Below are positions 1 to 23,630 of a stretch of 64,000 nucleotides of DNA, piece after piece. Each line of letters opens with the position of its first letter. The first letter of the stretch is position 1. This stretch comes from Minisyncoccota bacterium. GTDB taxonomy: Bacteria; Patescibacteriota; Minisyncoccia; UBA6257; 2-01-FULL-56-20. The notes beneath the pieces are model-generated. The model saw nothing but the letters and a program-made list of their open reading frames with translations, was not told the DNA's origin and did not search any database. The stretch covers positions 11,853-75,852 of the forward strand of contig DATJLR010000003.1 of the NCBI GenBank assembly GCA_035509435.1, written 5' to 3'. The position numbers and the translations under genes are program-made.

Positions 1-95
1 CCGCGACGGTAAAGTTCAAGAACGGCATCCTCACGGTCACGCTGCCCAAAGCGAACAAGAAGAAGACCCGCAAGCTCAAGGTTCGCCTGGAATAA
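1..95 (+). CDS. Hsp20/alpha-crystallin family small heat-shock protein, 3' end (partial; start upstream of window)
   Basis: In-frame translation ...TVKFKNGILTVTLPKANKKKTRKLKVRLE* matches the conserved Hsp20 C-terminal 'NGVLTVTLPK' motif; stop TAA at 93-95. Confidence 0.55.
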   Translation, partial: ATVKFKNGILTVTLPKANKKKTRKLKVRLE

Positions 96-171
96 ACGCC
101 AAGCGCCGGTTCGCTTGCATAAATCGCCCCTTTCGCCTATAATAGGGTGAACAAAGCCAATCACTACTCCC

Positions 172-402
172 ATGAGGAAATGCGCACGATGCGGAAAAAC
201 TTCACAGATGCAGGGCGCGCGCAAACTTTTGCGCGGCCACTATAACCCCGTCAACTGGTCCCGCAAGTACCCCAACTTGCAGTACGCCACGGTGGACGGC
301 AAGCGCATGCTTGTGTGCACCACCTGCCTGCGCACGATCCACAAAGCCCCGCGCAAGGCGCTGAAGGCAAAAGCGCCCGTAGCGATGGCCGAGGCAAAAT
401 AA
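172..402 (+). CDS. rpmB: 50S ribosomal protein bL28
   Basis: 76 aa; 'C-x2-C ... NPNLQ ... VCTTCLRT' zinc-ribbon pattern typical of bL28; basic composition. Confidence 0.85.
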   Translation: MRKCARCGKTSQMQGARKLLRGHYNPVNWSRKYPNLQYATVDGKRMLVCTTCLRTIHKAPRKALKAKAPVAMAEAK

Positions 403-414
403 TATAATCCTCCC

Positions 415-777
415 ATGGCATCACCGGAAACATTTCGCCCCCAAGAGAACCTTCCTCCGGAATTGCCAAAATCTGGTCATTTAAAAAGCCAGCTGGGAAA
501 GTATGTCTCGTCATCCGAGACGAAGGTTCCTCAGGATAAAATGGCTTGGGCACGCATCCTTATTCAAAAACTTCCCGACAACTATAAAGGGATGGTCACT
601 GAGTTCATCGTCGGACTCCCCTTTGAAGATCGTCAAAAGGCAGCCGAACACCTTTCGGGATTGATCGAAGGAATGGGAGATCAAATCTGGCGATCCAAGT
701 ATCCCAAAGTAGAGATCCAGCGATGCCTTGAGGAAACTGACCGCTGGTTGCGGGTGGACGACAAGGAGGCAGCGTAA
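415..777 (+). CDS. hypothetical protein (inside low-GC insertion)
   Basis: 120-aa ORF with ~50% GC, lower than flanking core genes; no recognisable motif. Confidence 0.35.
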   Translation: MASPETFRPQENLPPELPKSGHLKSQLGKYVSSSETKVPQDKMAWARILIQKLPDNYKGMVTEFIVGLPFEDRQKAAEHLSGLIEGMGDQIWRSKYPKVEIQRCLEETDRWLRVDDKEAA

Positions 778-782
778 AAAAA

Positions 783-1556
783 TCAGCGAAAATTTTTCCG
801 ATCAAGCGTACTTGTCGGATAGATATCTTTTGGATAAATTTCGATAAGCCGAAGGTTTCTTTCCGCGCAAAATCTTCGCTTTTTCTCAAGCCTGCCGTCG
901 TATTTATTTTGTACGCCCGCCAACCCAAAAAATTCTACGACGATATTTGGCTGGATAAAGAAATCTGCGGTCATCTTAGTATCGCCATAGCGCCAGTGCC
1001 GCTCGTGCATAATATGCTTTTTCAGAAGCCAATCATCGATAACCTTCTCTGTAAATGAATCACATGGATGGCCATCGTCCGCAATGAACTTCCTTGCAAA
1101 TTGAACAGGATTTGCGTCGAATCCCGCGGCAATGATCGCCTGATTCCAGCCGCCAAACTCCCTTTTGAAAACCTTAAAGGAATTAAATTCGCGCTTGAGA
1201 GGTATGCGCCCATTCTTGCGATGAAATTCCTTAATTTTTTCAAGGAGGTCTTGGCGTGTATATCTTATAGGAGACCAAAACTCCTTTAGTTTGCGCCTCG
1301 CTCGCTCTTTTTCTTCGTCAGTCCACTCGTGCTGATGCCGCCTTTTTTGAATTTCGATATGTTGCTGTAATGACAACACTATTCCTTGGACCCAAATATT
1401 TACCGTACTCACGCTAACGTTTAATTCTCTGGCTATTTCGCGGTGAGTGCTTCCTCCCGATCGTAATTCTCGTGCTTTTTCCCGGATTGAAGAAGGGTAC
1501 CGCATTCCATTTCTTTTTTTTGCTATTTTCATGGATCCATTATAGAATTCATACAT
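783..1556 (-). CDS. stand-alone homing-endonuclease-like protein (N-terminal HTH + homing-endonuclease-associated repeat + C-terminal PD-(D/E)XK/Vsr-like nuclease)
   Basis: 257 aa, low GC. N-terminal 'GGSTHREIARELNVSVSTVNIW' HTH. 'LLEKIKEFHRKNGRIPLKREF...FKREFGGWNQAIIAAGF' fits the HE-associated repeat. C-terminal 'ADFFIQPNIVVEFFG...KKRRFCAERNLRLIEIY' is endonuclease-like. Confidence 0.55.
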   Translation of the reverse strand: MYEFYNGSMKIAKKRNGMRYPSSIREKARELRSGGSTHREIARELNVSVSTVNIWVQGIVLSLQQHIEIQKRRHQHEWTDEEKERARRKLKEFWSPIRYTRQDLLEKIKEFHRKNGRIPLKREFNSFKVFKREFGGWNQAIIAAGFDANPVQFARKFIADDGHPCDSFTEKVIDDWLLKKHIMHERHWRYGDTKMTADFFIQPNIVVEFFGLAGVQNKYDGRLEKKRRFCAERNLRLIEIYPKDIYPTSTLDRKNFR

Positions 1557-1571
1557 TAAAAATATATTAAG

Positions 1572-1642
1572 CGGGCTGTGGCGTAGTGGTAGCGCACGTC
1601 CATGGGGTGGATGAGGCCCGGATCCGATTTCCGGCAGCCCGA
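1572..1642 (+). tRNA. tRNA-Pro (anticodon GGG)
   Basis: Manual cloverleaf: acceptor CGGGCTG/CAGCCCG; D-arm GCGT-AGTGGTA-GCGC; anticodon arm CGTCC-AUGGGGU-GGATG (GGG at 1604-1606); variable AGGC; T-arm CCGGA-TCCGATT-TCCGG; discriminator A; no encoded CCA. The T-loop has C at position 55 instead of the near-universal U. Confidence 0.75.
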
Positions 1643-1646
1643 CAAG

Positions 1647-1709
1647 AAAACAAAAGCAGCCCTTCGCCTCCAGGCAAATGACCGTTCGGCGAAGGGCTGC
1701 TTTTGTTTT
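1647..1709. terminator. perfect 22-bp inverted repeat (A-run/hairpin/T-run), bidirectional terminator downstream of tRNA-Pro
   Basis: AAAACAAAAGCAGCCCTTCGCC-(19 nt loop)-GGCGAAGGGCTGCTTTTGTTTT. Confidence 0.6.
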
Positions 1710-1720
1710 AATGCGGTATA

Positions 1721-2617
1721 ATGGAGGATATGGAACAGGAATTCATTCTGAACGCGCAGAACGAGCTCACGGAGAACATCATCTATCACCGGCTCGCGCT
1801 CATGGAGCGGAACCCGGCCAACCGTGCGGCGCTTGAACGGCTTTCGGCACAGGAAAAAACGCATTACGAGTTCTGGAAATCGCTCCTGCCGGAAGCCGAG
1901 GGGGCGCGCATCCGCGCCCGGTGGCGCACCGTCTCGTGGATATGGATCATGCGCACCCTGTTCGGCGTGACGTTCATCACCAAGCTTCTTGAGACGCACG
2001 AGAACGATGCGGTGCAAAAATATGAGAGCATCATGGGATCGATCCCTGCGGACCGCAAGCAGCGGTTTGCCGAGATCATCGAGGATGAACGCTCGCACGA
2101 GCGGGCGCTGATCGCCCAGCTCAAAGAGAAGCGCGTGAGCTATATGGGATTCATCGTGCTCGGCCTCGCGGACGCGATCGTGGAGATCACGGGGGTCCAT
2201 GCCGGATTCCTGGGCGTCACCGGCTCCACGCTCATCGCGGGCGTCGCGGGCGTGATCGTCGGATTCGCCGCCGCGATCTCGATGGGCTCGGCAGGATACC
2301 TGCAGGCCAAGCAGGACCCGGAAAAATCCGCACTCCTCTCCGGCTTCATCACGTGGGCTTCGTACTTCTGTTCCGTCATCCTCCTTGCGCTCCCCTACTT
2401 CTTGATCCGCGTGATGGTCCCCGCCTTCATCATTTCCACGTCGGTGGGCATCGTGCTCGTGGCGGGGTTCACGTTCTACGGCGCCATCGTCTTCGACCGC
2501 AAATTCTGGCGCGAGTTCGGCGAAACGGTCGGCCTGATGCTCGCGACCGCGCTTGCCACATTCCTTCTCGGCACCGTCGTCGGCAATATCTTTCACGTCC
2601 ACCCGTCGAGCTTTTAA
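1721..2617 (+). CDS. membrane-bound ferritin-like protein (erythrin/ferritin-like N-domain fused to VIT1/CCC1 iron-transporter domain; MbfA-like)
   Basis: 298 aa; N-terminal rubrerythrin-like 'ER...EKTHYEFW...EDERSHE' pairs; C-terminal multi-TM VIT1-like region. TATAAT at 1714-1719 and GGAGGA directly upstream. Confidence 0.75.
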   Translation: MEDMEQEFILNAQNELTENIIYHRLALMERNPANRAALERLSAQEKTHYEFWKSLLPEAEGARIRARWRTVSWIWIMRTLFGVTFITKLLETHENDAVQKYESIMGSIPADRKQRFAEIIEDERSHERALIAQLKEKRVSYMGFIVLGLADAIVEITGVHAGFLGVTGSTLIAGVAGVIVGFAAAISMGSAGYLQAKQDPEKSALLSGFITWASYFCSVILLALPYFLIRVMVPAFIISTSVGIVLVAGFTFYGAIVFDRKFWREFGETVGLMLATALATFLLGTVVGNIFHVHPSSF

Positions 2618-2637
2618 AATAATTTAACACGCCCACT

Positions 2638-2979
2638 ATGATCATCGATAATCTCTCCAAAGGCCATTGCGTCCCCTGCGAAGGCGGCATGCCGCCGCTC
2701 GACCACGAGTATGTGCAAAAATATTCCGCACAAGTGCCTGAGTGGAACGTGTCCGGCGACGAAAAGAAGCTCTCGCGCGAATTCACGTTCAAGGATTTCG
2801 TGCAAGCGATGAAATTCGTGAATGCCGTGGCGGACGTCGCGCAAGCCGAAGGCCACCATCCCGACATTTATATCTTTTACAACAAGGTCCGTTTCGACCT
2901 GACCACCCACGCAATGGGCGGCCTCTCCGAAAACGACTTCATCCTTGCGGCGAAGATCGATCAGATAAAACCTTTGTAA
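2638..2979 (+). CDS. pterin-4a-carbinolamine dehydratase (PCD/DCoH)
   Basis: 113 aa; 'EGHHPDIYIFYNKVRFDLTTH...GLSENDF' matches the PCD signature. Confidence 0.85.
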   Translation: MIIDNLSKGHCVPCEGGMPPLDHEYVQKYSAQVPEWNVSGDEKKLSREFTFKDFVQAMKFVNAVADVAQAEGHHPDIYIFYNKVRFDLTTHAMGGLSENDFILAAKIDQIKPL

Positions 2980-3002
2980 AATAGGACCTACTAGAACATA
3001 AC

Positions 3003-3031
3003 TTGACAAATATATATAGTCATCATATAAT
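3003..3031 (+). promoter_or_regulatory. sigma70-type promoter with perfect consensus elements
   Basis: TTGACA (3003-3008), 17-nt spacer, TATAAT (3026-3031); followed by RBS AAGGAGG (3092-3098) and ATG at 3107. Confidence 0.5.
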
Positions 3032-3106
3032 ATACCCAGCCATTTATCACGTAAGGGCTTTATCAATCTGCAGTTCAGTTTAGTTCAGCCCAAGGAGGGC
3101 AAAACC

Positions 3107-3853
3107 ATGATGCAGGCTCGCGTGCAGTCGCTTTTTGTCGTGCGGGGAAATGAAAATATCCCCTCCCCAAAGAATTCCACCCTCAAGCACAGCTCCATGA
3201 CGCCGGGGCGTACGCGGTACCTGAGGCCCTGCCGGACCACGATGGACCTTGCCAGAACTTTCGGCGGAACCTTCGTTACCGGGGGCGAGCGCGGGCGCAA
3301 AGCCTGCCTCATTCCGGAGAACGAGGACACCGTATTCGATCAGGAATTCCTCACCGCCAATGACCCCTTCAGCCGGCCTGCCGTTTCTCTTGACGAACTG
3401 GCAGGACTGCAGGCTTCGATGGAACTTGGCTACGACGATGAGGACGAAGACACCCTCGCGCGGCGCCTCTCGGATCCCGATGTCCAGCTGAACCAGGCCC
3501 AGATCGACCGGGTGGTGGACGTCGTCCGGGAAGATCCGGCGGTCCTGATCGCTCTGTACCACATGGGAATCCACGCCGACGGCGTGGACGACCGGAAGGC
3601 CAAACAGCTGGCCCGCCTCAAGACCTTCGGTCTTTTCATGCGGGTCTGCGCGACCATGATGGCGGCCGACGGGAAAGAGAGCGTGAACCGGATGCTCTCA
3701 ATGCACCGGGACCCGATCAGCGGCAAAACACTGCTCTCGTGCCTCGCGGCCCTCGCTCGCAAAGAGAAGAAGGAAGACCATCGCCATTTCACGGCGGCGA
3801 ACATCATGACGGCCCTGGGGCACACCAACCCCTTTGCGTCGTACCTCCGGTAA
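3107..3853 (+). CDS. hypothetical protein
   Basis: 248-aa ORF with strong SD AAGGAGG 8 nt upstream; acidic central region; no recognisable domain. Confidence 0.55.
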   Translation: MMQARVQSLFVVRGNENIPSPKNSTLKHSSMTPGRTRYLRPCRTTMDLARTFGGTFVTGGERGRKACLIPENEDTVFDQEFLTANDPFSRPAVSLDELAGLQASMELGYDDEDEDTLARRLSDPDVQLNQAQIDRVVDVVREDPAVLIALYHMGIHADGVDDRKAKQLARLKTFGLFMRVCATMMAADGKESVNRMLSMHRDPISGKTLLSCLAALARKEKKEDHRHFTAANIMTALGHTNPFASYLR

Positions 3854-3874
3854 AGCCAGCCAGATACACAACTT

Positions 3875-3920
3875 AAAACGGCCTCGCGCAAACCAGCGCC
3901 CGGCCGTTTTTTCTTTTTAC
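3875..3920 (+). terminator. intrinsic terminator after 3107..3853
   Basis: AAAACGGCC-tcGCGCaaaccaGCGCc-GGCCGTTTTTTCTTTTT; hairpin plus T-tract. Confidence 0.5.
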
Positions 3921-4331
3921 AAAACCCGAGTGTTTAAAAATGTCGGCGAGGCGAAGAGTGCCGACGAAAGCGTACCTCGCGTACGCTGAGGAGGCACGAT
4001 GAAGCCGCAGCCACATTTTAAAGCAGGAGCTATCCAGCAATACGCTCGTGCCAAACAAAAACACCCTGCGCTGGCTTCCCGTTTGAGAAAAAGCCAATGC
4101 AGGGTGTTTTTGTTGAATCCCGTCAGATTTCTGGCGTAACAGCCAGGTGGGTGAGCTCAACTGCGGCCCACGGGCGGCAGAGATAATCGCTCTCCCTCTT
4201 AATATTGTTTGATCCGAAATCTGTGCGGGATCTATTTCCATTATACCACCCCTCCGCTGAAAGATATCAAGTGCATAATCCGCGTCAGAAAACTGGAAAA
4301 GAAGGCCAAATTGGACTAGAATCCAAGGGCT

Positions 4332-5693
4332 ATGAAACTCCAAACGCGGAGGCGCATATTCTATGTGTTCATCCTTTTGTTCGTGGTGATCGGCGCGGCC
4401 GTCGTGCTCTACGCGGAGGGCTGGCGCCTTGACCTTTCTACGCTGCAGGCCGAAAAGGCCGGCGGGGTTTACGTGCGCTCGTATCCCTCAAGCGCGACGA
4501 TCACGCTGGGCGGCAAGCCGATCCAGAACCAGTCGGCGTTCCTGAGCAGCGGGACGTTCATCTCCGGACTCCTCCCGAAGACCTATACGCTCAAACTCTC
4601 GGCGCCAGGCTATGACGCATGGATCGAGGCCGTGCCCGTCACGCCCACACTTGTCACGGAAATGAAGTATGCCGTGCTTGTTCCCGCATCATCCACCGCG
4701 ATCACAACGAGCAGTCCGGTAAGCGATTACTTCCAGGCGGACGGCGGCGTAGTGACGGAAAGCGGCGGTGCGATCACGTGGCTCGGCAAAACGATCGGGC
4801 ATGGCACGATCATAAGCCACAGCACCGACCTCAAGACCGCCGTCATCCGATCCGTGAACGCCAAGACCGGCGCAGCATCATACTCGCTCTATAACTTTAC
4901 GAACAACACCAGCACTCCCCTTTCCGCGGCGCTCGCCGGCGCGGGCATCCGGCTGACGGCGACGACCAACCTATTCATCGATCCATATGACGACACGGCA
5001 GTCTTCGCGCAGACCGCGGCGAGGATCGTGCGGATCGATGCCGGAACCCTCCGCGCAACGACGGTCACGACGGCGCCGGCCGGCGAGACGATCGAAACCC
5101 CCATCGCCGTCTCGCCGTCCGTTATGGCGTGGGCGCTTTTCTCGGCGCCTTCTCCCTCCACGGGTACAACGGGGTCTTCGCGCATCGTGGTCTATGATAA
5201 ATTCTCCGGCAACACCGTGGACAGCTCGCTCACGGTGCCCGGCGCCGTCAAGCAGCTCGCCTGGGTCCGGAACAACGCGCTCGGCGTGCTCGAGAACACC
5301 AACGCGCTGTACCTTTATAACGTGTCGGCCGAACATCTCTCGGTGCTCGCGGATGACGTAAAGCAGTTCTACCCCGCGGCGGACGGCAATGCGGTGGCGG
5401 CGCTCGAATACGATAGCTTGGAAATATTCTCGTTCGTGAGCGGGCAGCCCAGCTATTATCGCTTTACCCTTCCGGAGACCGCGAATGTGCAGGGTCTCGC
5501 GTGGTACAAAGATGACGCGCACCTTTTTGTGGAATATCAGAACCACGTTTCGTTCCTTGACCTTGCCGACACGGCGCTCAAGAACCTTACGACCATTTCG
5601 GACGGCACCGACGCGTCGTATGACGCGCAGGAAAACTCTCTTTATATCATCGATCCGGCGCAGGAACTGATCCGATTCGACTTCCCTCAATAG
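4332..5693 (+). CDS. membrane-anchored PEGA-domain protein with beta-rich extracellular region
   Basis: 453 aa; N-terminal TM helix; 'VYVRSYPSSATITLGGKPI...YTLKLSAPGYDAW' is a PEGA motif. Confidence 0.65.
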   Translation: MKLQTRRRIFYVFILLFVVIGAAVVLYAEGWRLDLSTLQAEKAGGVYVRSYPSSATITLGGKPIQNQSAFLSSGTFISGLLPKTYTLKLSAPGYDAWIEAVPVTPTLVTEMKYAVLVPASSTAITTSSPVSDYFQADGGVVTESGGAITWLGKTIGHGTIISHSTDLKTAVIRSVNAKTGAASYSLYNFTNNTSTPLSAALAGAGIRLTATTNLFIDPYDDTAVFAQTAARIVRIDAGTLRATTVTTAPAGETIETPIAVSPSVMAWALFSAPSPSTGTTGSSRIVVYDKFSGNTVDSSLTVPGAVKQLAWVRNNALGVLENTNALYLYNVSAEHLSVLADDVKQFYPAADGNAVAALEYDSLEIFSFVSGQPSYYRFTLPETANVQGLAWYKDDAHLFVEYQNHVSFLDLADTALKNLTTISDGTDASYDAQENSLYIIDPAQELIRFDFPQ

Positions 5694-6250
5694 TTGCCAC
5701 GACGGCCCTCCTCCCGCACTGCTTCCGGATAATTATCGCCCATCACATGACGGCGCGCGCGCATAAGGAGTTCCTTCTGCACGAGCCGCGCCTTCGTCTT
5801 CCCTACCGCCGGCAGAATGATCTTATTATGCGCCGCATCGCGCTCCGACCCGTTCATAAAGATGACCACCTGGCTCACGCCGGCGATTCGATCAAGCGGT
5901 CCGCGCTGGATGCTCACGTTCTGGATCTGGTGATAAAGCGCCGCGAGCTCGGTGCGCATGACATATCCGTAGGTCATCACAAAGGCCTCGTCGGTAAAGG
6001 TATACGTATAAAAACGATACTCCATCCAGGTCCACAAAAGCACCACCAAAAGATAGAGCACGCTAAAGAGCGCGAGGAGATCCACTGCATACTGAACGAA
6101 CGGTAGGTAATCGGGTGGCACCCACCGCTCGCTGTACCAGGCGGCGATGGTCAGGACAAAGAAAAAAATCGCGAGCTTTATCCGCTTCGACAGAAACAGG
6201 AGGAATGCGCGCTTGCCAAGCGAATGTTTTTGGTGGTTCTCAATCCCCAT
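5687..6250 (-). CDS. bacterial PH-domain (YdbS/YdbT-like, DUF304) membrane protein
   Basis: 187 aa; two TM helices followed by 'YTFTDEAFVMTYGYVMRTELAALYHQIQNVSIQRGPLDRIAGVSQVVIF', typical of membrane-flanked bPH_2 domains. Confidence 0.6.
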   Translation of the reverse strand: MGIENHQKHSLGKRAFLLFLSKRIKLAIFFFVLTIAAWYSERWVPPDYLPFVQYAVDLLALFSVLYLLVVLLWTWMEYRFYTYTFTDEAFVMTYGYVMRTELAALYHQIQNVSIQRGPLDRIAGVSQVVIFMNGSERDAAHNKIILPAVGKTKARLVQKELLMRARRHVMGDNYPEAVREEGRRGNY

Positions 6251-9096: not shown

Positions 9097-9618
9097 TTAG
9101 ATGGGTCCGTAAGATATACCCGCAAACTGCTTATCAATATTACCCTGCGAACGTCTCCCCGGCATTACATCTGGCTTAAAGATTGCTTTCATCCAATATT
9201 TTTTGCCCCAAATATCTTGATAGGTTATATAAAGTTCTCCATTATTAAAAAGAGGGTTATTCCCTTCTGAGAAAGGGATCGTCGCCGAGCTTTCTAAAAA
9301 TTGAAAGCTGTCTGAGTATTTTTTAGGCAATATATCAAAGCTAAGATTCAAAATTCTGCCTATTGGTTTGATTTCCACTCTAATATTCTTAGCTAGCCCA
9401 TTTCCAGCATTTTCAAGACCAAAGTTTAATACTTGGGGATTTGAAACATCAGTGATAATAGGAACTAATATAGGGATCTGGCCTTCTCTATTTTGTCTTA
9501 GCGCCTTGAATGCATAATAGGCCGATAGACCGGCGACAATGACGGATAAAAGTGGCAGTAAGATTCCAATCCAGTTTAGAAATATAGGGCTCTGATGAAT
9601 TAAAAGATGATGGTGCAT
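9097..9618 (-). CDS. hypothetical membrane-anchored protein (low-GC islet)
   Basis: 173-aa ORF, AT-rich, N-terminal TM helix. Confidence 0.45.
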   Translation of the reverse strand: MHHHLLIHQSPIFLNWIGILLPLLSVIVAGLSAYYAFKALRQNREGQIPILVPIITDVSNPQVLNFGLENAGNGLAKNIRVEIKPIGRILNLSFDILPKKYSDSFQFLESSATIPFSEGNNPLFNNGELYITYQDIWGKKYWMKAIFKPDVMPGRRSQGNIDKQFAGISYGPI

Positions 9619-9634
9619 TGATGCGTTACTTTTA

Positions 9635-10093
9635 CTAATTACTCCACTCCGAACAAGATTGAGCCGCCTGTTGTGCTATAACCCTGTATTGAGGAGAAGC
9701 AGCACCATTAACATTGATGTAGGCGTTAGCGTCTATAAGCCATACCACGCCATAATTTTCTATGAGGTAATCGAAATCACAATTACATTTGCCCCATGTT
9801 CCCCCAGAAGATGTACAACCATTAACAAAAGAATTTCGTTGACTCTCGGCGGCAGGTGAAAAAGTCATAGGCGTGTAATTGTGGGGATAATCATAAGATG
9901 GTTGAACGGTTGCGTTTTGAACCTGGGGCTGAATTTGAACTGCCGATGACGTCTGGGTGAGTTGTTGAATTGAGTTGTTCGCGGAAGTATTTGTTAATTG
10001 CTCTTGATTGTTTAAATTTTGCCCCAATAAATAGGCTCCTATGGTTAGGGCTACAACCAAGACACCTACAACAAACCATTTCCCTCCACTCAT
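9635..10093 (-). CDS. hypothetical secreted/membrane-anchored protein (low-GC islet)
   Basis: 152 aa; N-terminal TM/signal; Q/N/T-rich linker; Cys-containing C-domain 'GCTSSGGTWGKCNCDFDYL'. Confidence 0.45.
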   Translation of the reverse strand: MSGGKWFVVGVLVVALTIGAYLLGQNLNNQEQLTNTSANNSIQQLTQTSSAVQIQPQVQNATVQPSYDYPHNYTPMTFSPAAESQRNSFVNGCTSSGGTWGKCNCDFDYLIENYGVVWLIDANAYINVNGAASPQYRVIAQQAAQSCSEWSN

Positions 10094-20306: not shown

Positions 20307-20672
20307 CTAAAATTTTTCAATGTCCTTTGCTAGTTCTCGAAAGATGAAGACCCCTAATACAAGAACCGCTACGACATACAAGATTCCAACCGCCCAATGC
20401 GAAGAGAATTCAACTTCAAACAAAAATTGATATATACCAATGATTACTTGCACCAGCGCGAAGGCGATTAAAACCAACGAATATTTTCTGGTCGATTTAT
20501 CGAGTTCGTGAGCCGTTTTTCGATTCCTCAAAGCGGCCTTAATTTGAAGGATCGTTAATTTATGCATTTTCTGTTCCTCGACCATACCACTACTTGGAGG
20601 CCCTATGGTCTCAATTTCCCCTAGAAGATCTTGATCTTCAGATAGATATAGCTCCATGTTCTTATTATCCAT
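20307..20672 (-). CDS. small membrane protein, hypothetical (AT-rich, 3 nt upstream of helicase start)
   Basis: 121 aa, about 40% GC, two C-terminal TM helices. Confidence 0.45.
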   Translation of the reverse strand: MDNKNMELYLSEDQDLLGEIETIGPPSSGMVEEQKMHKLTILQIKAALRNRKTAHELDKSTRKYSLVLIAFALVQVIIGIYQFLFEVEFSSHWAVGILYVVAVLVLGVFIFRELAKDIEKF

Positions 20673-20752
20673 GCAAAAAGTTTACGCCACATCATAAAAT
20701 ACACAAGATTGACGAATTCGAAAGAATATATAAGATTGAGGGACGTACTAAA

Positions 20753-21709
20753 ATGGAACTCTTCTCGAAAAGATACTCGGCAAAAGGGCCTCGCAATGAC
20801 GTTATTCTTTCCGATACACTTAGAAAGCGTCTGGAACAGGAGTTAAAGTTCATAACTTCAAGTAAAGATTATATTGAAGCCTTTCTTTTGGTTGATAATG
20901 AAAAAGAGAATAAGATTTATTTGCATTCTCTTACCCTACGAGATTTAAGTTCTCGGGAGTTGGGTTATGATTTAACGTCCTTGGTTTACTGTAAAACTAT
21001 GGATTTCAATGCGAACCCCGATGATAATCAACTTCTAGACCTTATAGAACTATTAATCATTTTTTGTAAAGAAATAAACCGTAAAGAATTAATTGAGAGG
21101 TTACAAAACATCTTCAAGGAAGAGGGAGATCAATTTATAATTCACAATTTCATAATTTTTAAGAAGGATGAAACTGGGCTGAAATCTCTCGTGCCCTTAA
21201 TTAAAGATAAGAACCTCCAAGTCAAATTAGAGGAATACTTTACTGAAGCATCGAGAGGTAGTAAACCAAATTATGAGATGCTAGCCCGTATTGCTGCGGA
21301 TATTGTACAGATACTCTTTAGTGCTCCAAAGCAAAAAGAAACAAAAAAATATTCTGAACAATTATGTAGCGATATTGCATATAAATGGACGGATAAAAAG
21401 AATGCCCAAGCGTTGGCAATTCTCCTTAGTGAAACCGTTAAAAATGCTAAGGAACTAAGTAATCAGATTAGTAATATTCGACATACAGACAGAAGCACTA
21501 TACCAGTTAGAACGCCTAGCCTATATAGATTAATTGCCTTAAAAAATTCTTCAATTGCTGAAGTGGTTATACTTTCCTTGCCAGAAAATTATATTTTAGA
21601 CCAAAATCCGGAAGAGATTAAAAATCACTATCTCGGTAAATACAACCTCAAAGCTGATAATGGCTGGTTGGTTGAAGATGAAATAAAGCCGGAAGATATA
21701 CCTTTCTAA
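20753..21709 (+). CDS. hypothetical protein (AT-rich island)
   Basis: About 318 aa from the ATG at 20753, preceded by GAGGGA 9 nt upstream. The ORF track's 20594 start overlaps the opposite-strand gene. No recognisable motif. Confidence 0.45.
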   Translation: MELFSKRYSAKGPRNDVILSDTLRKRLEQELKFITSSKDYIEAFLLVDNEKENKIYLHSLTLRDLSSRELGYDLTSLVYCKTMDFNANPDDNQLLDLIELLIIFCKEINRKELIERLQNIFKEEGDQFIIHNFIIFKKDETGLKSLVPLIKDKNLQVKLEEYFTEASRGSKPNYEMLARIAADIVQILFSAPKQKETKKYSEQLCSDIAYKWTDKKNAQALAILLSETVKNAKELSNQISNIRHTDRSTIPVRTPSLYRLIALKNSSIAEVVILSLPENYILDQNPEEIKNHYLGKYNLKADNGWLVEDEIKPEDIPF

Positions 21710-21739
21710 AGCAAGACCAGATAGGCAACGACTCAATCT

Positions 21740-22927
21740 CTAAAAATTCTTAACAATAAGATGCTGCACGGCCCTATCATTCCTACCTTTCATATTGTAA
21801 GTGTATTTCTTATCGAACGAAGAGATGTTTATATTCTGCTTGCCTTTGTATAAGCCGTAGATGAACGACGTCCTTTTTATCACCAAAATAAATTTGGCCT
21901 TAGTGGTATATAAATAACGCGCAAGCCGAAATTGGTCATCACGATCAAAGCTTTTCTTTTCGTAATCACTGAAATCGGTATCGTATGGAGGGTCGAGGAA
22001 AATAAAATCTTTTGAAGAAAGCTTCAGTTTATTGAGAAATGTTTCAAAATCCTCGTTGTAAATTACCGCTCCTGCCAAGAGATTATGGGCCTCCAAAGAA
22101 AAGAGCCGGTCGACTTTCTTTCTAAAATTTTTAGTGTTGTACCCTATCCCTCCATATGGGATATTAAATTCTCCGTTGGCGTTAAATCGGAACATGGATC
22201 CATAGCAAAACTCTCGGATGAAATAATAGTTTGCGATGGCTTTTGCGCGGCTGATATGGTTCATTCCCCTTTTTTCATTCATAACATCCCTAAAATGCAT
22301 ATAAAATCCACTGCGAAATGCAGTCTCAATGTTCTTATGAAGATCCTCAATTGAGATCCTGCCGCTACTGAACTCAAGCTTTTTGACACGTGTGATCTTA
22401 TCAATGAGATTGTCAATGATGCGCTTTTCAAGATTATTCCTGTCTATACAAAAGTCCGCCCTGAACAGCCCATTGAATGCCTGAATTTGTCCGTGTATGT
22501 AATCTTCCGTAAGGCGACGCAGATCGTTTTTGCTAATAGAATCGGCAGCATAACGGGCGTACAAAGAGATGAACTGCCTCTGGAAAAGAAGGATGTAATT
22601 CGGAATTTTCTCCCAATTGAAGACATACTCATAGATTTCCTTAGAAAATTCTTTTGTATTATATTTCCCACCTACGAAGCGGTAAAAATCCATCAGCTCT
22701 ACGGCAATATCGTTGATGGCGGCTCTTTCTGGTTGTAACTCAAAAAATATCGCACCACCACCAAAGAACGGCTCAATATAGCGATCAAACGCAGGAATGT
22801 GATGCTTAATAAAAGAGAATTCCCGTTTTTTTCCGCCAGGCCACTTGATCAATGCCTGTGTATTAGGTGTGGATATCTCCCGATTGGAAGGTCGCAAGAG
22901 GTTCAAATCAATGTGCTGTTTTTGCAT
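21740..22927 (-). CDS. Dam-like (D12 class) N6-adenine DNA methyltransferase
   Basis: 395 aa; 'IKWPGGKK', 'EPFFGGGAIFFEL' (SAM binding), catalytic 'FLDPPYD'. Confidence 0.85.
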   Translation of the reverse strand: MQKQHIDLNLLRPSNREISTPNTQALIKWPGGKKREFSFIKHHIPAFDRYIEPFFGGGAIFFELQPERAAINDIAVELMDFYRFVGGKYNTKEFSKEIYEYVFNWEKIPNYILLFQRQFISLYARYAADSISKNDLRRLTEDYIHGQIQAFNGLFRADFCIDRNNLEKRIIDNLIDKITRVKKLEFSSGRISIEDLHKNIETAFRSGFYMHFRDVMNEKRGMNHISRAKAIANYYFIREFCYGSMFRFNANGEFNIPYGGIGYNTKNFRKKVDRLFSLEAHNLLAGAVIYNEDFETFLNKLKLSSKDFIFLDPPYDTDFSDYEKKSFDRDDQFRLARYLYTTKAKFILVIKRTSFIYGLYKGKQNINISSFDKKYTYNMKGRNDRAVQHLIVKNF

Positions 22928-23630
22928 TTTCTATAATTTTCTTTAGTTGTGAAATTTTTAAAATGTTATTGCGCTGTCGATGAACCATCCGATGGCAGTT
23001 TGAACACAGAGGAACGACTTTCTTCAACGCTTCATCCGCCGCCATCTTTTCTCCGGACGCTTCATGCTGATGAATAGGATGCGTGTGATGAATCTCGATA
23101 TAATCGCGGCCGCGTTCGCCGTAGAATTTCAAGAAATCGAACTCGCACGCTATGCAAGGAATTTTTCCGCCCTTCTTAAAGTGCGCCCTGGCAAGCTGGA
23201 TCAGTTTTCGCGACCGCTCTCTGAACGCAACATTTTTTGTCGAGAGAAATCCTTCTTCAACGATGATGTCTTTGTAGTCATCTTTGAATTCTTGCTCTCT
23301 TATCTCTTCACTGAAGCCCTGCTCCTGAAGCGCTTCAACAACTTCTTCATAACCAGCATTCAAATATCTTCTACCCTCGTCCGTAATGAAGAAAAGTTTG
23401 TCCTTATATATCGCAAGATTCTTCTTCTCTAAGGTATCGTGCGATTTTAGGTTGCGCACTTTTTGGCTGAACTTTGTATCGGTGCGGCCGCTGAGTATTT
23501 CAGCATCTTCCCCTTCGGGCTTCAGTGTGTCAGTTAATTCCTTGATAAGATACTCGGTCGGAACGCCTTCCGGATGGCGCTCGATGATCTTAAGGGCGGG
23601 AATTACGAGGTCCGATTCGGCGTAAATCAT
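22908..23630 (-). CDS. HNH-family endonuclease (probable restriction endonuclease partner of the Dam-like MTase)
   Basis: 240 aa; 'CIACEFDF...IEIHHTHPIH...PLCSNCHRMVH' HNH/zinc motif; 20-nt overlap with the MTase gene; AT-rich. Confidence 0.75.
   Translation of the reverse strand: MIYAESDLVIPALKIIERHPEGVPTEYLIKELTDTLKPEGEDAEILSGRTDTKFSQKVRNLKSHDTLEKKNLAIYKDKLFFITDEGRRYLNAGYEEVVEALQEQGFSEEIREQEFKDDYKDIIVEEGFLSTKNVAFRERSRKLIQLARAHFKKGGKIPCIACEFDFLKFYGERGRDYIEIHHTHPIHQHEASGEKMAADEALKKVVPLCSNCHRMVHRQRNNILKISQLKKIIENAKTAH

Follow-up and report, generated by a model that had tools for sequence, protein, structure and literature searches.

Free-standing homing endonucleases are known chiefly from phages and organelles. 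I-Ssp6803I, a PD-(D/E)XK-type homing endonuclease that forms a small single-domain tetramer, is encoded in the group I intron of the tRNA-fMet gene of Synechocystis, whilst the gene for I-Bth0305I resides in a group I intron within the recA gene of a phage. SegB of bacteriophage T4 is a free-standing homing endonuclease of the GIY-YIG type, encoded in the T4 tRNA gene cluster, whose activity has been shown experimentally; it recognises a site containing the conserved tRNA T-psi-C motif and is inherited together with the tRNA genes on its flanks (PMC2330249).

The locus described here lies in a 64,000-nucleotide stretch of a Minisyncoccota genome (hereafter the window), and probably carries a free-standing homing endonuclease gene from an unannotated family whose members target the tRNA-Pro(GGG) gene and bring a promoter for this tRNA with them. 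As with SegB, the genes of the family are free-standing, with neither intron nor intein, are situated beside or among tRNA genes and are absent from the same site in relatives; the phage relatives of the family are also found within tRNA arrays. The resemblance is functional only, in that SegB has a GIY-YIG domain whereas the family has a Vsr-like PD-(D/E)XK fold. Furthermore, SegB spreads via phage co-infections, whereas the family resides in the cellular chromosomes of Patescibacteria next to a single tRNA species, and whilst the activity of SegB is experimentally established, we infer that of the family, including cleavage, homing and the use of the tRNA gene as recognition site. I-Ssp6803I shares with the family both the PD-(D/E)XK superfamily and the tie to a bacterial tRNA gene, yet it sits within an intron that interrupts the tRNA, whereas the gene of the family lies outside the tRNA, is associated with no intron and encodes three domains. 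I-Bth0305I is likewise intron-encoded, in contrast to the free-standing, intergenic gene of the family.

The gene layout put forward in the original prediction was recovered in full, and consists of an L28-like ORF (76 aa, probable rpmB; positions 172-402, plus strand), a small lineage-specific ORF, orf120 (120 aa; 415-777, plus strand), an ORF of at most 257 aa on the minus strand and, divergent from the latter, a tRNA-Pro(GGG) gene (1572-1643, plus strand; ARAGORN, with an Rfam score of 53.4 bits), which anchors the cassette and is its inferred target. The 257-aa length holds for the maximal ORF (783-1556), but the likely start codon is the ATG at 1532, which is also the start in NCBI record HUC01896.1 and yields a putative free-standing homing endonuclease gene of 249 aa (783-1532, minus strand). 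From this start, the distance between gene and tRNA is 39 nt and not the 15 nt first given. A compact divergent promoter region (1520-1571, assigned to neither strand) extends from the -35 box of the proposed tRNA promoter, within the first codons of the gene, up to the base that precedes the tRNA. The label rpmB found some backing in whole-model but sub-threshold matches of the upstream ORF to L28 models (PF00830, E = 0.084; TIGR00009, E = 0.086), although the NCBI annotation of the protein is hypothetical. No paralogues of the nuclease gene were found elsewhere in the window. A group I intron or other RNA element around the tRNA was also considered and rejected, as Rfam searches of window positions 1-6000 returned the tRNA only.

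The nuclease protein (residues numbered according to the 257-aa ORF) comprises a helix-turn-helix (HTH) unit at approximately residues 22-57, a homing-endonuclease-associated repeat (HEAR) at 99-147 and a Vsr-like PD-(D/E)XK nuclease domain at approximately 155-245. The HEAR repeat recognised in the original prediction was verified by a solid match to PF18780 (E = 6e-13; 49.4 bits against a gathering cut-off of 26), and the same model matched the zinc-finger variants of the family and all protein-search homologues scanned. The predicted HTH was visible as a three-helix unit in an AlphaFold model, but remained below Pfam thresholds, with weak matches to HTH families of transposases and resolvases (IS21, E = 1.6e-5; HTH_7; HTH_23). 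Large multi-repeat HEAR proteins (500-1300 aa, with 8-22 repeats) share the HEAR unit and score against the family profile; they differ from the family, in which a single HEAR unit is fused to a nuclease domain and to either an HTH or a zinc-finger.

Sequence searches for the identity of the nuclease domain in Pfam, NCBIfam and the PDB, the latter with both single sequence and profile, were empty, and a PHROGs search of the protein returned only a weak HNH match. No nuclease family, Vsr (PF03852) and DUF559 (PF04480) included, was matched by seven isolated nuclease domains (Pfam, E <= 10) or by the whole protein, and no GIY-YIG catalytic domain was matched in Pfam, NCBIfam or PHROGs. The informative results for this domain were a match to the PADLOC profile PDC-S69, discussed below, and a fold comparison, in which the modelled domain resembled I-Bth0305I, Vsr and TnsA and contained the alpha-beta-beta-beta-alpha-beta core of the PD-(D/E)XK / Vsr-like superfamily. 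This comparison supports the predicted Vsr-like fold. There was no detectable sequence similarity to I-Bth0305I (from the EDxHD group of Vsr-like homing endonucleases; PDB 3r3p) in a profile search of PDB sequences, and at the sequence level the DGHxCDS, ADF and EFFGL motifs of the family differ from its E-D-x-H-D motif. Invariant within the nuclease domain are E170, D198, E208 and K226, along with the motif DGHxCDS, and the first three of these residues are positioned on the elements expected to carry PD-(D/E)XK catalytic residues, namely helix 1 for the E, strand 2 for the D and strand 3 for the (D/E)xK. The third position of the catalytic motif is occupied by F210 rather than lysine (E208-F-F), such that the canonical (D/E)xK lysine is absent; the invariant K226 on the following helix might stand in for it. 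Nuclease activity is presumed from these invariant residues. Strong purifying selection is evident across the protein, with 40 invariant columns among 32 aligned family members.

A protein-pattern search that made no use of tRNA information retrieved 53 loci of the family, covering Paceibacteria-type lineages and Microgenomates. In 52 of these, the immediate neighbour of the homologue is tRNA-Pro(GGG) or a similar gene. The nuclease gene of most Paceibacteria-type loci is divergent from the 5' end of the tRNA across a gap of 24-47 nt, zinc-finger variants are co-directional and located 1-71 nt downstream of the tRNA, and in one locus (L137) the gene is co-directional and upstream; the linkage thus occurs in two architectures and three orientations. 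One Sungbacteria locus has the zinc-finger architecture of the Microgenomates type. The order L28-like gene, nuclease gene and tRNA-Pro(GGG) was found in about 25 loci, whilst the nuclease gene was always beside the tRNA, including in tRNA clusters with no L28-like gene. At least 179 homologues of the protein were present in a collection clustered at 90% identity, and a 50%-identity library contained 212 family representatives at E <= 1e-30. Relatives in phages were found within tRNA arrays, one of them (L178) 42 nt downstream of a tRNA-Pro(UGG) gene. A literature search found no report tying the family, PF18780 or PDC-S69 to tRNA-Pro.

An independent sample of 120 metagenomic tRNA-Pro(GGG) loci was assembled by tRNA pattern alone; Patescibacteria origin is unproven for part of it, an L28-like neighbour being present in only 42 of the 120. 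The nuclease gene occurred in 4 of these loci, or in 3 of the 54 with at least 900 nt on each side of the tRNA. In approximately 20 loci the L28-like gene and the tRNA are no more than about 130 nt apart and the nuclease gene is absent. Occupied and empty loci were intermixed by L28 similarity, to the extent that an occupied (L001) and an empty locus (L143) had 97% L28 identity, and no nuclease remnants were detected at empty sites when all 120 loci were translated in six frames and searched with a profile. A comparison of the rpmB/tRNA-Pro junction among relatives, as the original prediction had proposed, revealed empty sites, at which the tRNA directly follows either the L28-like gene or a small ORF. 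The refuting outcome named in the original prediction, with both ORFs conserved here at native GC in every relative, was not seen: only a minority of the relatives carried the nuclease gene, and none of its copies had native GC. The presence of relatives at the same tRNA-Pro(GGG) position in roughly one in 20 related genomes indicates a mobile family of nucleases with a specific site and not an insertion at random, and this family is previously undescribed. Together with the linkage in 52 of 53 loci, a low GC content throughout the family and the Vsr-like fold, the empty sites support the earlier reading of the gene as a selfish, free-standing insertion.

The low GC content is equally a feature of the window locus. 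The segment at 403-1571 has a GC content of 44.3% (nuclease gene, 42.9%; orf120, 49.6%), as compared to 57.0% and 57.7% in its two flanks and 56.0% for the window as a whole, and values this low were found in just 5.6% of equal-sized segments across the 64 kb. The segment had accordingly been correctly placed below its flanks, although the contrast first quoted (48-50% against more than 60%) was inexact at both ends. As an ordinary core gene passed on vertically, the nuclease gene could owe its low GC to a protein in which lysine, phenylalanine, isoleucine and asparagine abound, and the conserved synteny in about 25 loci, along with a correlation between nuclease and L28 identities, would be in keeping with this. 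However, the GC3 of the gene is also depressed, at 0.44 as compared to 0.66 +/- 0.14 for the ORFs of the window (n = 48), hence its low GC is not solely an effect of amino acid composition, and GC3 was below that of the neighbouring genes in 51 of the 53 family loci, with a mean deficit of 14 points. Low GC3 could stem from weak expression instead of mobility. A core gene is further contradicted by the empty sites, the gene being missing from approximately 95% of the sampled tRNA-Pro(GGG) loci, close relatives included, and by the existence of pseudogenised copies, and this explanation is scarcely tenable. Decaying copies would be expected of a gene that is repeatedly gained, degenerates and is lost, and four were identified: one with many stops (L033), one cut off at about residue 170 (L043) and two with one in-frame stop each (L023 and L067), the single stops of which may be sequencing errors.

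Identity of the nuclease core correlated with that of L28 (Mantel r = 0.52; host marker, 60 aa of L28), with a shallow slope (0.24), and some pairs had a higher identity for the nuclease (0.71) than for L28 (0.53). This partial co-divergence with the L28-like gene would suit a long vertical residence marked by repeated loss just as well as transfer. The nuclease gene is not a one-off acquisition but belongs to a site-specific family found throughout the phylum, the sequence of which in part follows that of the host.

The original prediction had treated positions 403-1571 as a single insertion, which applies to the nuclease cassette but not to orf120. The latter has no match in Pfam, NCBIfam, PHROG or PADLOC, and is started by gene callers at 541 (78 aa); just two homologues of it were found, P0270 (63% identity) and an inverted copy in L006 (35%). 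In the relative L174, a single nucleotide separates the end of the orf120 homologue from tRNA-Pro(GGG) and the nuclease gene is absent, which places orf120 outside the cassette, and the slot that it occupies is filled by unrelated ORFs in L001, L005, L143 and L073; the segment as one element was rejected on these grounds. Rather, orf120 is a separate lineage-specific gene in a hypervariable slot 3' of the L28-like gene. In cassette-free relatives the L28-like gene is co-directional with the tRNA and often 2-130 nt away from it, and the slot between the two also houses kinase-like ORFs (398-424 aa) and ORFs of 303-311 aa. The 573-nt spacer of an empty locus (L146) encodes a homologue of the small ORF of L005. 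Two empty sites thus have an occupied counterpart, the window in the case of L174 and L005 in that of L146, and they delimit the cassette to about 778-1571.

With the cassette so delimited, its edges were searched for signs of insertion. The target-site duplication proposed for the segment edges was not found, and neither this nor terminal inverted repeats were evident at 403/1571 or 778/1571 beyond weak repeats at chance level; there was also no duplicated tRNA fragment flanking the cassette. Searches of Pfam and NCBIfam revealed no DDE, serine or tyrosine recombinase domain in it. The lack of target-site duplications and terminal repeats fits homing by gene conversion and not transposition, and a transposon-type insertion was rejected for want of convincing edge repeats and a recombinase domain. 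We also considered a site-specific mobile element that does not home, whether TnsA-like or recombinase-like, and reaches its place beside tRNA-Pro(GGG) by transposition or site-specific insertion, given that tRNA genes are classic integration sites and that the HTH weakly matches transposase and resolvase families. Such an element is very unlikely, as the cassette is essentially one ORF with no partner gene or recombinase, and the repeats and tRNA fragment expected of it are missing.

The site-specific nuclease could alternatively be of benefit to its host. The 249-aa form matched the PDC-S69 profile over residues 144-237 (E = 1.6e-11; positions 176-270 of the 289 in the profile), and a zinc-finger variant matched it with E = 9.5e-13, indicating a homologous nuclease domain; PDC-S69 and the zinc-finger variants are also of similar length. 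The gene could encode a domesticated or defence nuclease, such as an anti-phage effector akin to PDC-S69, and be stably parked at tRNA-Pro(GGG) as a common landing zone for accessory genes; the strong purifying selection, the partial co-divergence with the host and the kinase-like and 303-311 aa ORFs that share the slot would all be compatible with this. The similarity is, however, confined to the nuclease domain (95 of 289 profile positions, the C-terminal third and not the full length), and PDC-S69, which has no known link to tRNA genes, is an unvalidated computational candidate for which a literature search found no published function. Moreover, defence genes are not usually bound, in three different orientations, to one tRNA species throughout a phylum and in phages, the cassette is a single gene of approximately 800 nt with no partner, and the other genes of the slot adjoin the L28-like gene whereas the nuclease gene always adjoins the tRNA. 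A defence role is therefore considered unlikely.

On the favoured reading as a homing endonuclease, positions 778-1571 would constitute a minimal selfish cassette, consisting of one nuclease gene and a promoter spacer of roughly 40 nt, directly upstream of tRNA-Pro(GGG). The protein would bind DNA through the N-terminal HTH and the HEAR helices, and its Vsr-like PD-(D/E)XK domain (E170, D198, E208, K226) would cut at or near cassette-free tRNA-Pro(GGG) genes. The cassette, at times along with a portion of the tRNA, would then be copied in as the break is repaired with an occupied allele as template, the donor being supplied by DNA uptake or by phages bearing relatives. Insertion would cut the tRNA off from its upstream genes, for which the 5' end of the cassette would compensate with a tRNA promoter, back to back with the nuclease gene's own promoter for a leaderless mRNA. 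The cassette may hence illustrate how a selfish insertion is tolerated, with a replacement promoter supplied to the tRNA that it severs from upstream genes.

The promoter region is arranged accordingly in the window. On the minus strand, a TATAAT box (1544-1539) lies only 6 nt 5' of the nuclease start codon at 1532, so that the mRNA is predicted to be leaderless, and this box (in frame 'YN') is kept 6-9 nt 5' of the start codon across loci. On the plus strand, TTGCTA (1520-1525), a 17-nt spacer and TAGAAT (1543-1548) form the sole sigma-70-like match between positions 100 and 1800, such that the -10 boxes of the nuclease gene and the tRNA overlap back to back. A tRNA-sense promoter match (at least 8 of 12 positions, ending 5-35 nt before the tRNA) was found in 33 of the 38 type-1 loci, as compared to 29% of shuffled sequences and 33% of gene-free loci. 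These results support the earlier proposal that the tRNA promoter lies within the 5' end of the gene, and we propose that TTGCTA-17 nt-TAGAAT would drive tRNA-Pro(GGG) from a -35 box within the first codons of the nuclease gene.

In another alternative, the protein acts on RNA, with a RAP-like PD-(D/E)XK domain that binds or processes the tRNA-Pro(GGG) transcript or an L28-like/tRNA co-transcript, and the linkage would reflect a cis-acting or co-regulated function. The ORF of zinc-finger variants can begin 1-14 nt after the tRNA, implying co-transcription, and some of the adjacent tRNAs are aberrant (C33, unusual T-loops). By contrast, the tRNA beside the window gene is canonical, the HTH, zinc-finger and HEAR are typical DNA-binding modules of homing endonucleases and transposases, and a gene present at approximately 5% of tRNA-Pro(GGG) loci is no general tRNA processing factor, making this alternative most improbable.

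The tRNA alleles of occupied and empty sites were also compared. In the clade of the window, all eight occupied alleles carry C or G at position 9 and a D-loop A(G/A)TGG, whereas six of the seven empty alleles carry A9 and ACCGG; the window allele has G9 and the D-loop AGTGG, like the other occupied loci of its clade. Across the whole sample, occupied and empty alleles differed at position 9 (p = 1.4e-5) and in the anticodon stem (p = 6e-7). Phylogeny is a confounder for all of these allele differences, which moreover set genome representatives against metagenome contigs that were sampled differently. In one clade, tRNA-Pro(CGG) was 97-100% identical between loci and the adjacent tRNA-Pro(GGG) 61-97%. 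This extra divergence was restricted to close relatives in a sample selected on the tRNA-Pro(GGG) pattern, and a greater divergence of tRNA-Pro(GGG) overall was not supported (0.82 vs 0.79 for tRNA-Pro(CGG)). From these alleles, tRNA-Pro(GGG) would seem to behave like a contested target, and the tRNA variants linked to the cassette may protect against cleavage.

Taken jointly, these observations allow a broader, tentative reading, which as a whole we regard as possible though less than probable: that of a phylum-wide, intron-less homing family in Patescibacteria chromosomes, with interchangeable HTH and zinc-finger heads, for which tRNA-Pro(GGG) itself is the target. An arms race would speed the turnover of tRNA-Pro(GGG) alleles whilst the neighbouring tRNA-Pro(CGG) stays identical, the promoter would be carried as payment, and the phage relatives would serve as reservoir or vector. 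If true, this would amount to evidence, at the sequence level, that these uncultured ultra-small bacteria frequently take up DNA and undergo homologous recombination. A chromosomal family tied to a tRNA would in itself extend intron-less homing to cellular genomes across a phylum, and would point to regular DNA exchange and recombination in Patescibacteria, which are not yet genetically tractable. A family of hypothetical proteins, with a nuclease domain outside Pfam and NCBIfam models, also gains a name and a testable function, for which the occupied and empty alleles with their linked tRNA variants are concrete substrates for biochemistry. An enzyme that recognises a highly conserved tRNA gene of roughly 70 bp could additionally be a scaffold for rare-cutting nucleases.

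On the other side of the tRNA, at 1656-1710 on the plus strand, lies a hairpin resembling an intrinsic terminator, in which an inverted repeat (1656-1668 / 1688-1700, 100% complementary) forms a perfect 13-bp stem that is followed by a T run.

On the sequence comparisons made here, the nuclease gene, a minus-strand ORF at 783-1556 encoding a 257-aa protein, is a member of an unannotated, phylum-wide family that a minority of genomes carry, specifically at the tRNA-Pro(GGG) locus; no papers describing this family were found in the literature searched. At least 179 homologues were present among 5.8 billion protein clusters, and among the matches listed nearly all were about 250 aa long and 45-72% identical, with almost all named entries belonging to Patescibacteria. 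When 1.84 billion cluster representatives were searched with a profile, 212 proteins scored E <= 1e-30. Species-representative genomes, scanned with two peptide motifs alone as query, yielded 53 loci from many candidate phyla, comprising Paceibacteria-type lineages (Jorgensen-, Harrison-, Kaiser-, Ryan-, Wolfe- and Sungbacteria), Microgenomates (Gottesman-, Roizman-, Davies- and Woesebacteria) and WWE3.

In 51 of these 53 loci ARAGORN placed a tRNA-Pro(GGG) gene immediately next to the homologue, and an atypical one was detected by Rfam in a 52nd (L046). Where the nuclease has the helix-turn-helix (HTH) architecture, the gene is in most cases divergent from the tRNA, with 24-47 nt typically separating its start codon from the tRNA 5' end. 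Zinc fingers replace the HTH at the N-terminus in most Microgenomates loci, the Sungbacteria locus and several unclassified bins; this variant is usually on the same strand as the tRNA, 1-71 nt downstream, and is divergent in three loci, including that of WWE3. One metagenome locus, L137, has the nuclease gene upstream of the tRNA on the same strand. The L28-like gene lay within a few hundred nucleotides of the far end of the nuclease gene, often abutting it, in about 25 loci; in others, which had no L28-like gene close by, the nuclease gene was situated within a tRNA cluster, between tRNA-Pro(CGG) and tRNA-Pro(GGG). The tRNA is therefore its constant partner. Packing can be tight, as the 3' end of the nuclease ORF overlaps an opposite-strand neighbour both in L010, where the gene ends at 4777 within tRNA-Pro(CGG) (4758-4829), and in L005, where a small ORF is overlapped at 4785-4798.

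Within positions 1-2400 of the window, the 3' end of an Hsp20-like gene is followed by the L28-like ORF (172-402, +), orf120 (415-777, +; 120 aa), the nuclease ORF, tRNA-Pro(GGG) (1572-1643, +; Rfam 53.4 bits), a perfect 13-bp hairpin with a T run (1656-1710), a VIT/rubrerythrin-like gene supported by Pfam (1721-2617) and a pterin dehydratase gene. In NCBI the product of the nuclease gene is HUC01896.1, a hypothetical protein of 249 aa from a metagenome-assembled genome of Candidatus Paceibacterota, and the gene's start is likely the ATG at 1532, since a minus-strand TATAAT box (1544-1539) lies 6 nt upstream. ORF 172-402, labelled rpmB in the original observation, has the PNLQ signature and four cysteines, but scores only E about 0.08 against L28 models and is a 'hypothetical protein' in NCBI; L28 of Patescibacteria seems to escape the standard models. 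A 348-aa minus-strand ORF (1556-2602), which begins at the edge of the nuclease segment and runs antisense to the VIT/rubrerythrin gene, is almost certainly a spurious product of high GC.

The rpmB/tRNA-Pro junction, proposed as the test of insertion, was compared in a metagenome sample of tRNA-Pro(GGG) loci collected with a pattern built from the tRNA alone, with no protein reference; this pattern also matches 31 occupied loci. The nuclease gene was present in four of 120 loci (L115 and L132, intact; L067, with an in-frame stop; L137, cut by the contig end), and in three of the 54 having at least 900 nt either side of the tRNA. An L28-like gene was found in 42 of the 120; in about 20 of these it was co-directional with the tRNA and ended 2-130 nt before it. 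Because nothing intervenes in those 20 or so loci, the L28-like gene followed by tRNA-Pro(GGG) is, as judged from this sample, the common arrangement, with the nuclease gene an antisense insertion into the spacer.

Two matched pairs of occupied and empty loci delimit the insert precisely. The only close homologue of orf120 (63% identity) led to the empty locus L174, ordered Hsp20, L28-like gene, 424-aa ORF, orf120 homologue, tRNA-Pro(GGG) after 1 nt, two ORFs, VIT and pterin dehydratase. In the window, by contrast, the stretch from the orf120 stop (777) to the tRNA (1572) holds the nuclease gene. Likewise, in occupied L005 the nuclease gene separates a small ORF from the tRNA, whilst the homologue of that ORF in empty L146 ends 7 nt before the tRNA. 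The cassette is about 800 nt, one ORF plus a spacer of roughly 40 nt. Of the insertion originally placed at 403-1571, this portion stands; orf120 is separate, given that its L174 homologue ends 1 nt before the tRNA with no nuclease gene. Terminal repeats and the anticipated target-site duplication were sought at the cassette edges and were absent. A mobile element that does not home is regarded as a less likely explanation than a homing endonuclease.

Independently of the cassette, the slot that immediately follows the L28-like gene is hypervariable among close relatives. It holds orf120 in the window (403-782), unrelated ORFs of 181 aa in L001 (4779-5324) and 172 aa in L005 (4785-5303), kinase-like ORFs of a 398-424 aa class in L143 (399-1595) and L174 (424 aa; 2709-3983), and ORFs of a 303-311 aa class in L073 (1933-2844) and L123 (2208-3143). 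The kinase-like ORFs have an HxDLxxxN-like motif and no Pfam match.

Segment 403-1571 is indeed low in GC, at 44.3% against flanks of 57.0% and 57.7% (whole window, 56.0%), and the percentages first claimed overstated these values by a few points. A GC content this low is reached in only 5.6% of windows of equal size. The GC3 of the nuclease gene is 0.44, compared with 0.66 +/- 0.14 for 48 long ORFs of the window. Across the family, the nuclease gene had a lower GC3 than its flanking genes in 51 of 53 loci (mean difference -14 points), and the two values were related with a regression slope of 0.51 (r = 0.81). Low GC is a family trait and not the mark of one recent transfer.

When loci were ordered by L28 similarity, occupied and empty sites were interleaved; occupied L001 and empty L143, 97% identical in L28 and 84% identical in flanking nucleotide sequence, have entirely different spacers. 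Four nuclease copies (L033, L043, L023 and L067) are degraded or interrupted. The family-wide low GC3, the interleaved sites and the damaged copies are taken as signs of a selfish element. Pure horizontal spread is opposed by a correlation of nuclease-core identity with L28 identity (Mantel r = 0.52, 0/2000 permutations). The slope of this correlation is shallow, and in some locus pairs the nucleases are more alike than L28. We tentatively read this history, from a host marker of 60 aa, as long residence with repeated loss and regain.

The sole significant Pfam domain of the nuclease protein, spanning residues 99-147 (E = 6e-13), was the homing-endonuclease-associated repeat (HEAR; PF18780). 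Pfam matches to HTH models, over residues 25-57, were all sub-threshold, and NCBIfam gave nothing beyond weak transposase-type HTH models. An AlphaFold2 model from 32 homologues (pLDDT 81.6) has a helical N-terminal half and an alpha/beta C-terminal domain ordered helix, three strands, helix, strand. E170, D198, E208, K226 and the motif DGHxCDS are invariant in the homologue alignment, and the (D/E)xK motif has phenylalanine in place of the usual lysine. This domain was unrecognised in Pfam, NCBIfam and PDB sequence searches, including with the isolated domain at E <= 10. The only sequence-level relative was the PADLOC phage-defence candidate PDC-S69 (E = 1.6e-11), matched by the nuclease domain alone, for which no literature was found. 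The best explanation, and one we consider reasonably probable, is a free-standing homing endonuclease with the tRNA gene as its landmark. A defence nuclease related to PDC-S69 and an RNA-directed, RAP-like protein are less likely accounts. The original prediction of such a gene inserted beside tRNA-Pro was essentially right, and its reach is wider than proposed, extending to a whole family across the phylum specific to the tRNA-Pro(GGG) locus.

Several observations, all indirect, make the tRNA gene itself the probable target. Viral-contig relatives sit within phage tRNA arrays: in L178 (2260-3393), on a 179-kb contig, a 334-aa relative with zinc fingers, HEAR and the nuclease domain starts 42 nt downstream of tRNA-Pro(UGG), and two paralogues (L180, L183) lie between tRNA genes of one 97-kb contig. 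Another relative, L179, is a 464-aa version with several HEAR repeats adjoining an integrase-like ORF. This resembles T4 SegB, a free-standing GIY-YIG homing endonuclease of the T4 tRNA cluster, the recognition site of which includes the tRNA T-psi-C motif and which drives co-inheritance of neighbouring tRNA genes (PMC2330249).

Between loci of one clade (L007, L010, L012, L017 and L098), tRNA-Pro(CGG) is 97-100% identical whereas the adjacent tRNA-Pro(GGG) is 61-97% identical and tracks nuclease identity; their protein-coding flanks show about 72-75% nucleotide identity despite the near-identical tRNA-Pro(CGG). L014 and L041 have identical L28 segments and tRNA-Pro(GGG) genes differing throughout the anticodon arm. 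In the window's clade, six of seven empty alleles carry A9 and D-loop ACCGG, and all eight occupied alleles carry A(G/A)TGG with C or G at position 9. The seventh empty allele, L146, resembles the occupied type, which is what loss of the nuclease gene would leave behind. Over the whole sample, occupied and empty alleles differed in the anticodon stem, at position 9 and at the 6:65 pair (Fisher p 1e-5 to 6e-7). Phylogeny confounds these contrasts, and so does the fact that the two samples were drawn from different sources. Because of this confounding, and because tRNA-Pro(GGG) was no more divergent than neighbouring tRNAs in an all-pairs comparison, we only hypothesise that resistant tRNA alleles travel with the cassette.

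Aberrant tRNA-Pro(GGG)-like genes adjoin the nuclease gene in four divergent loci, three zinc-finger and one HTH-type (L036, 3919-3993; L039, 3696-3771; L044, 3498-3572; L046, 3463-3535); decay or a decoy role may account for them. L036, L039 and L046 have a non-canonical T-loop (such as GGGGCGGGACC where GGTTCGAATCC is usual), L044 and L046 have C at position 33, and the L036 tRNA falls below the Rfam gathering score whilst that of L046 was missed by ARAGORN.

The tRNA promoter predicted within the 5' end of the nuclease gene, TTGCTA (1520-1525), a 17-nt spacer and TAGAAT (1543-1548), is the only sigma-70-like match in 100-1800. Its -35 box occupies nuclease codons 3-5, and the TATAAT of the nuclease gene overlaps its -10 box in a back-to-back arrangement. 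A tRNA-sense promoter match (at least 8/12 positions) ending 5-35 nt before the tRNA was present in 33 of 38 HTH-type loci, compared with 29% of shuffled sequences and 33% of empty loci. The TATAAT box lies 6-9 nt upstream of the start codon, often GTG, across HTH-type loci, and a leaderless mRNA is therefore predicted. Insertion would part the tRNA from the L28-like gene, its frequent immediate neighbour in empty loci; judged by sequence, the cassette therefore seems to supply a promoter in compensation.

Two other low-GC patches occur in the window. That at 9097-10093 (about 40% GC; GC3 0.35-0.37) contains two minus-strand ORFs (173 and 152 aa) with no Pfam match. The lowest-GC island, 20594-23630 (35-46% GC), encodes a D12-class N6-adenine DNA methyltransferase (21740-22927; PF02086, E = 1.9e-34). 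Two ORFs lacking any Pfam match (20594-21709 and 22908-23630) flank the methyltransferase gene, and the whole may be a restriction-modification or mobile island.
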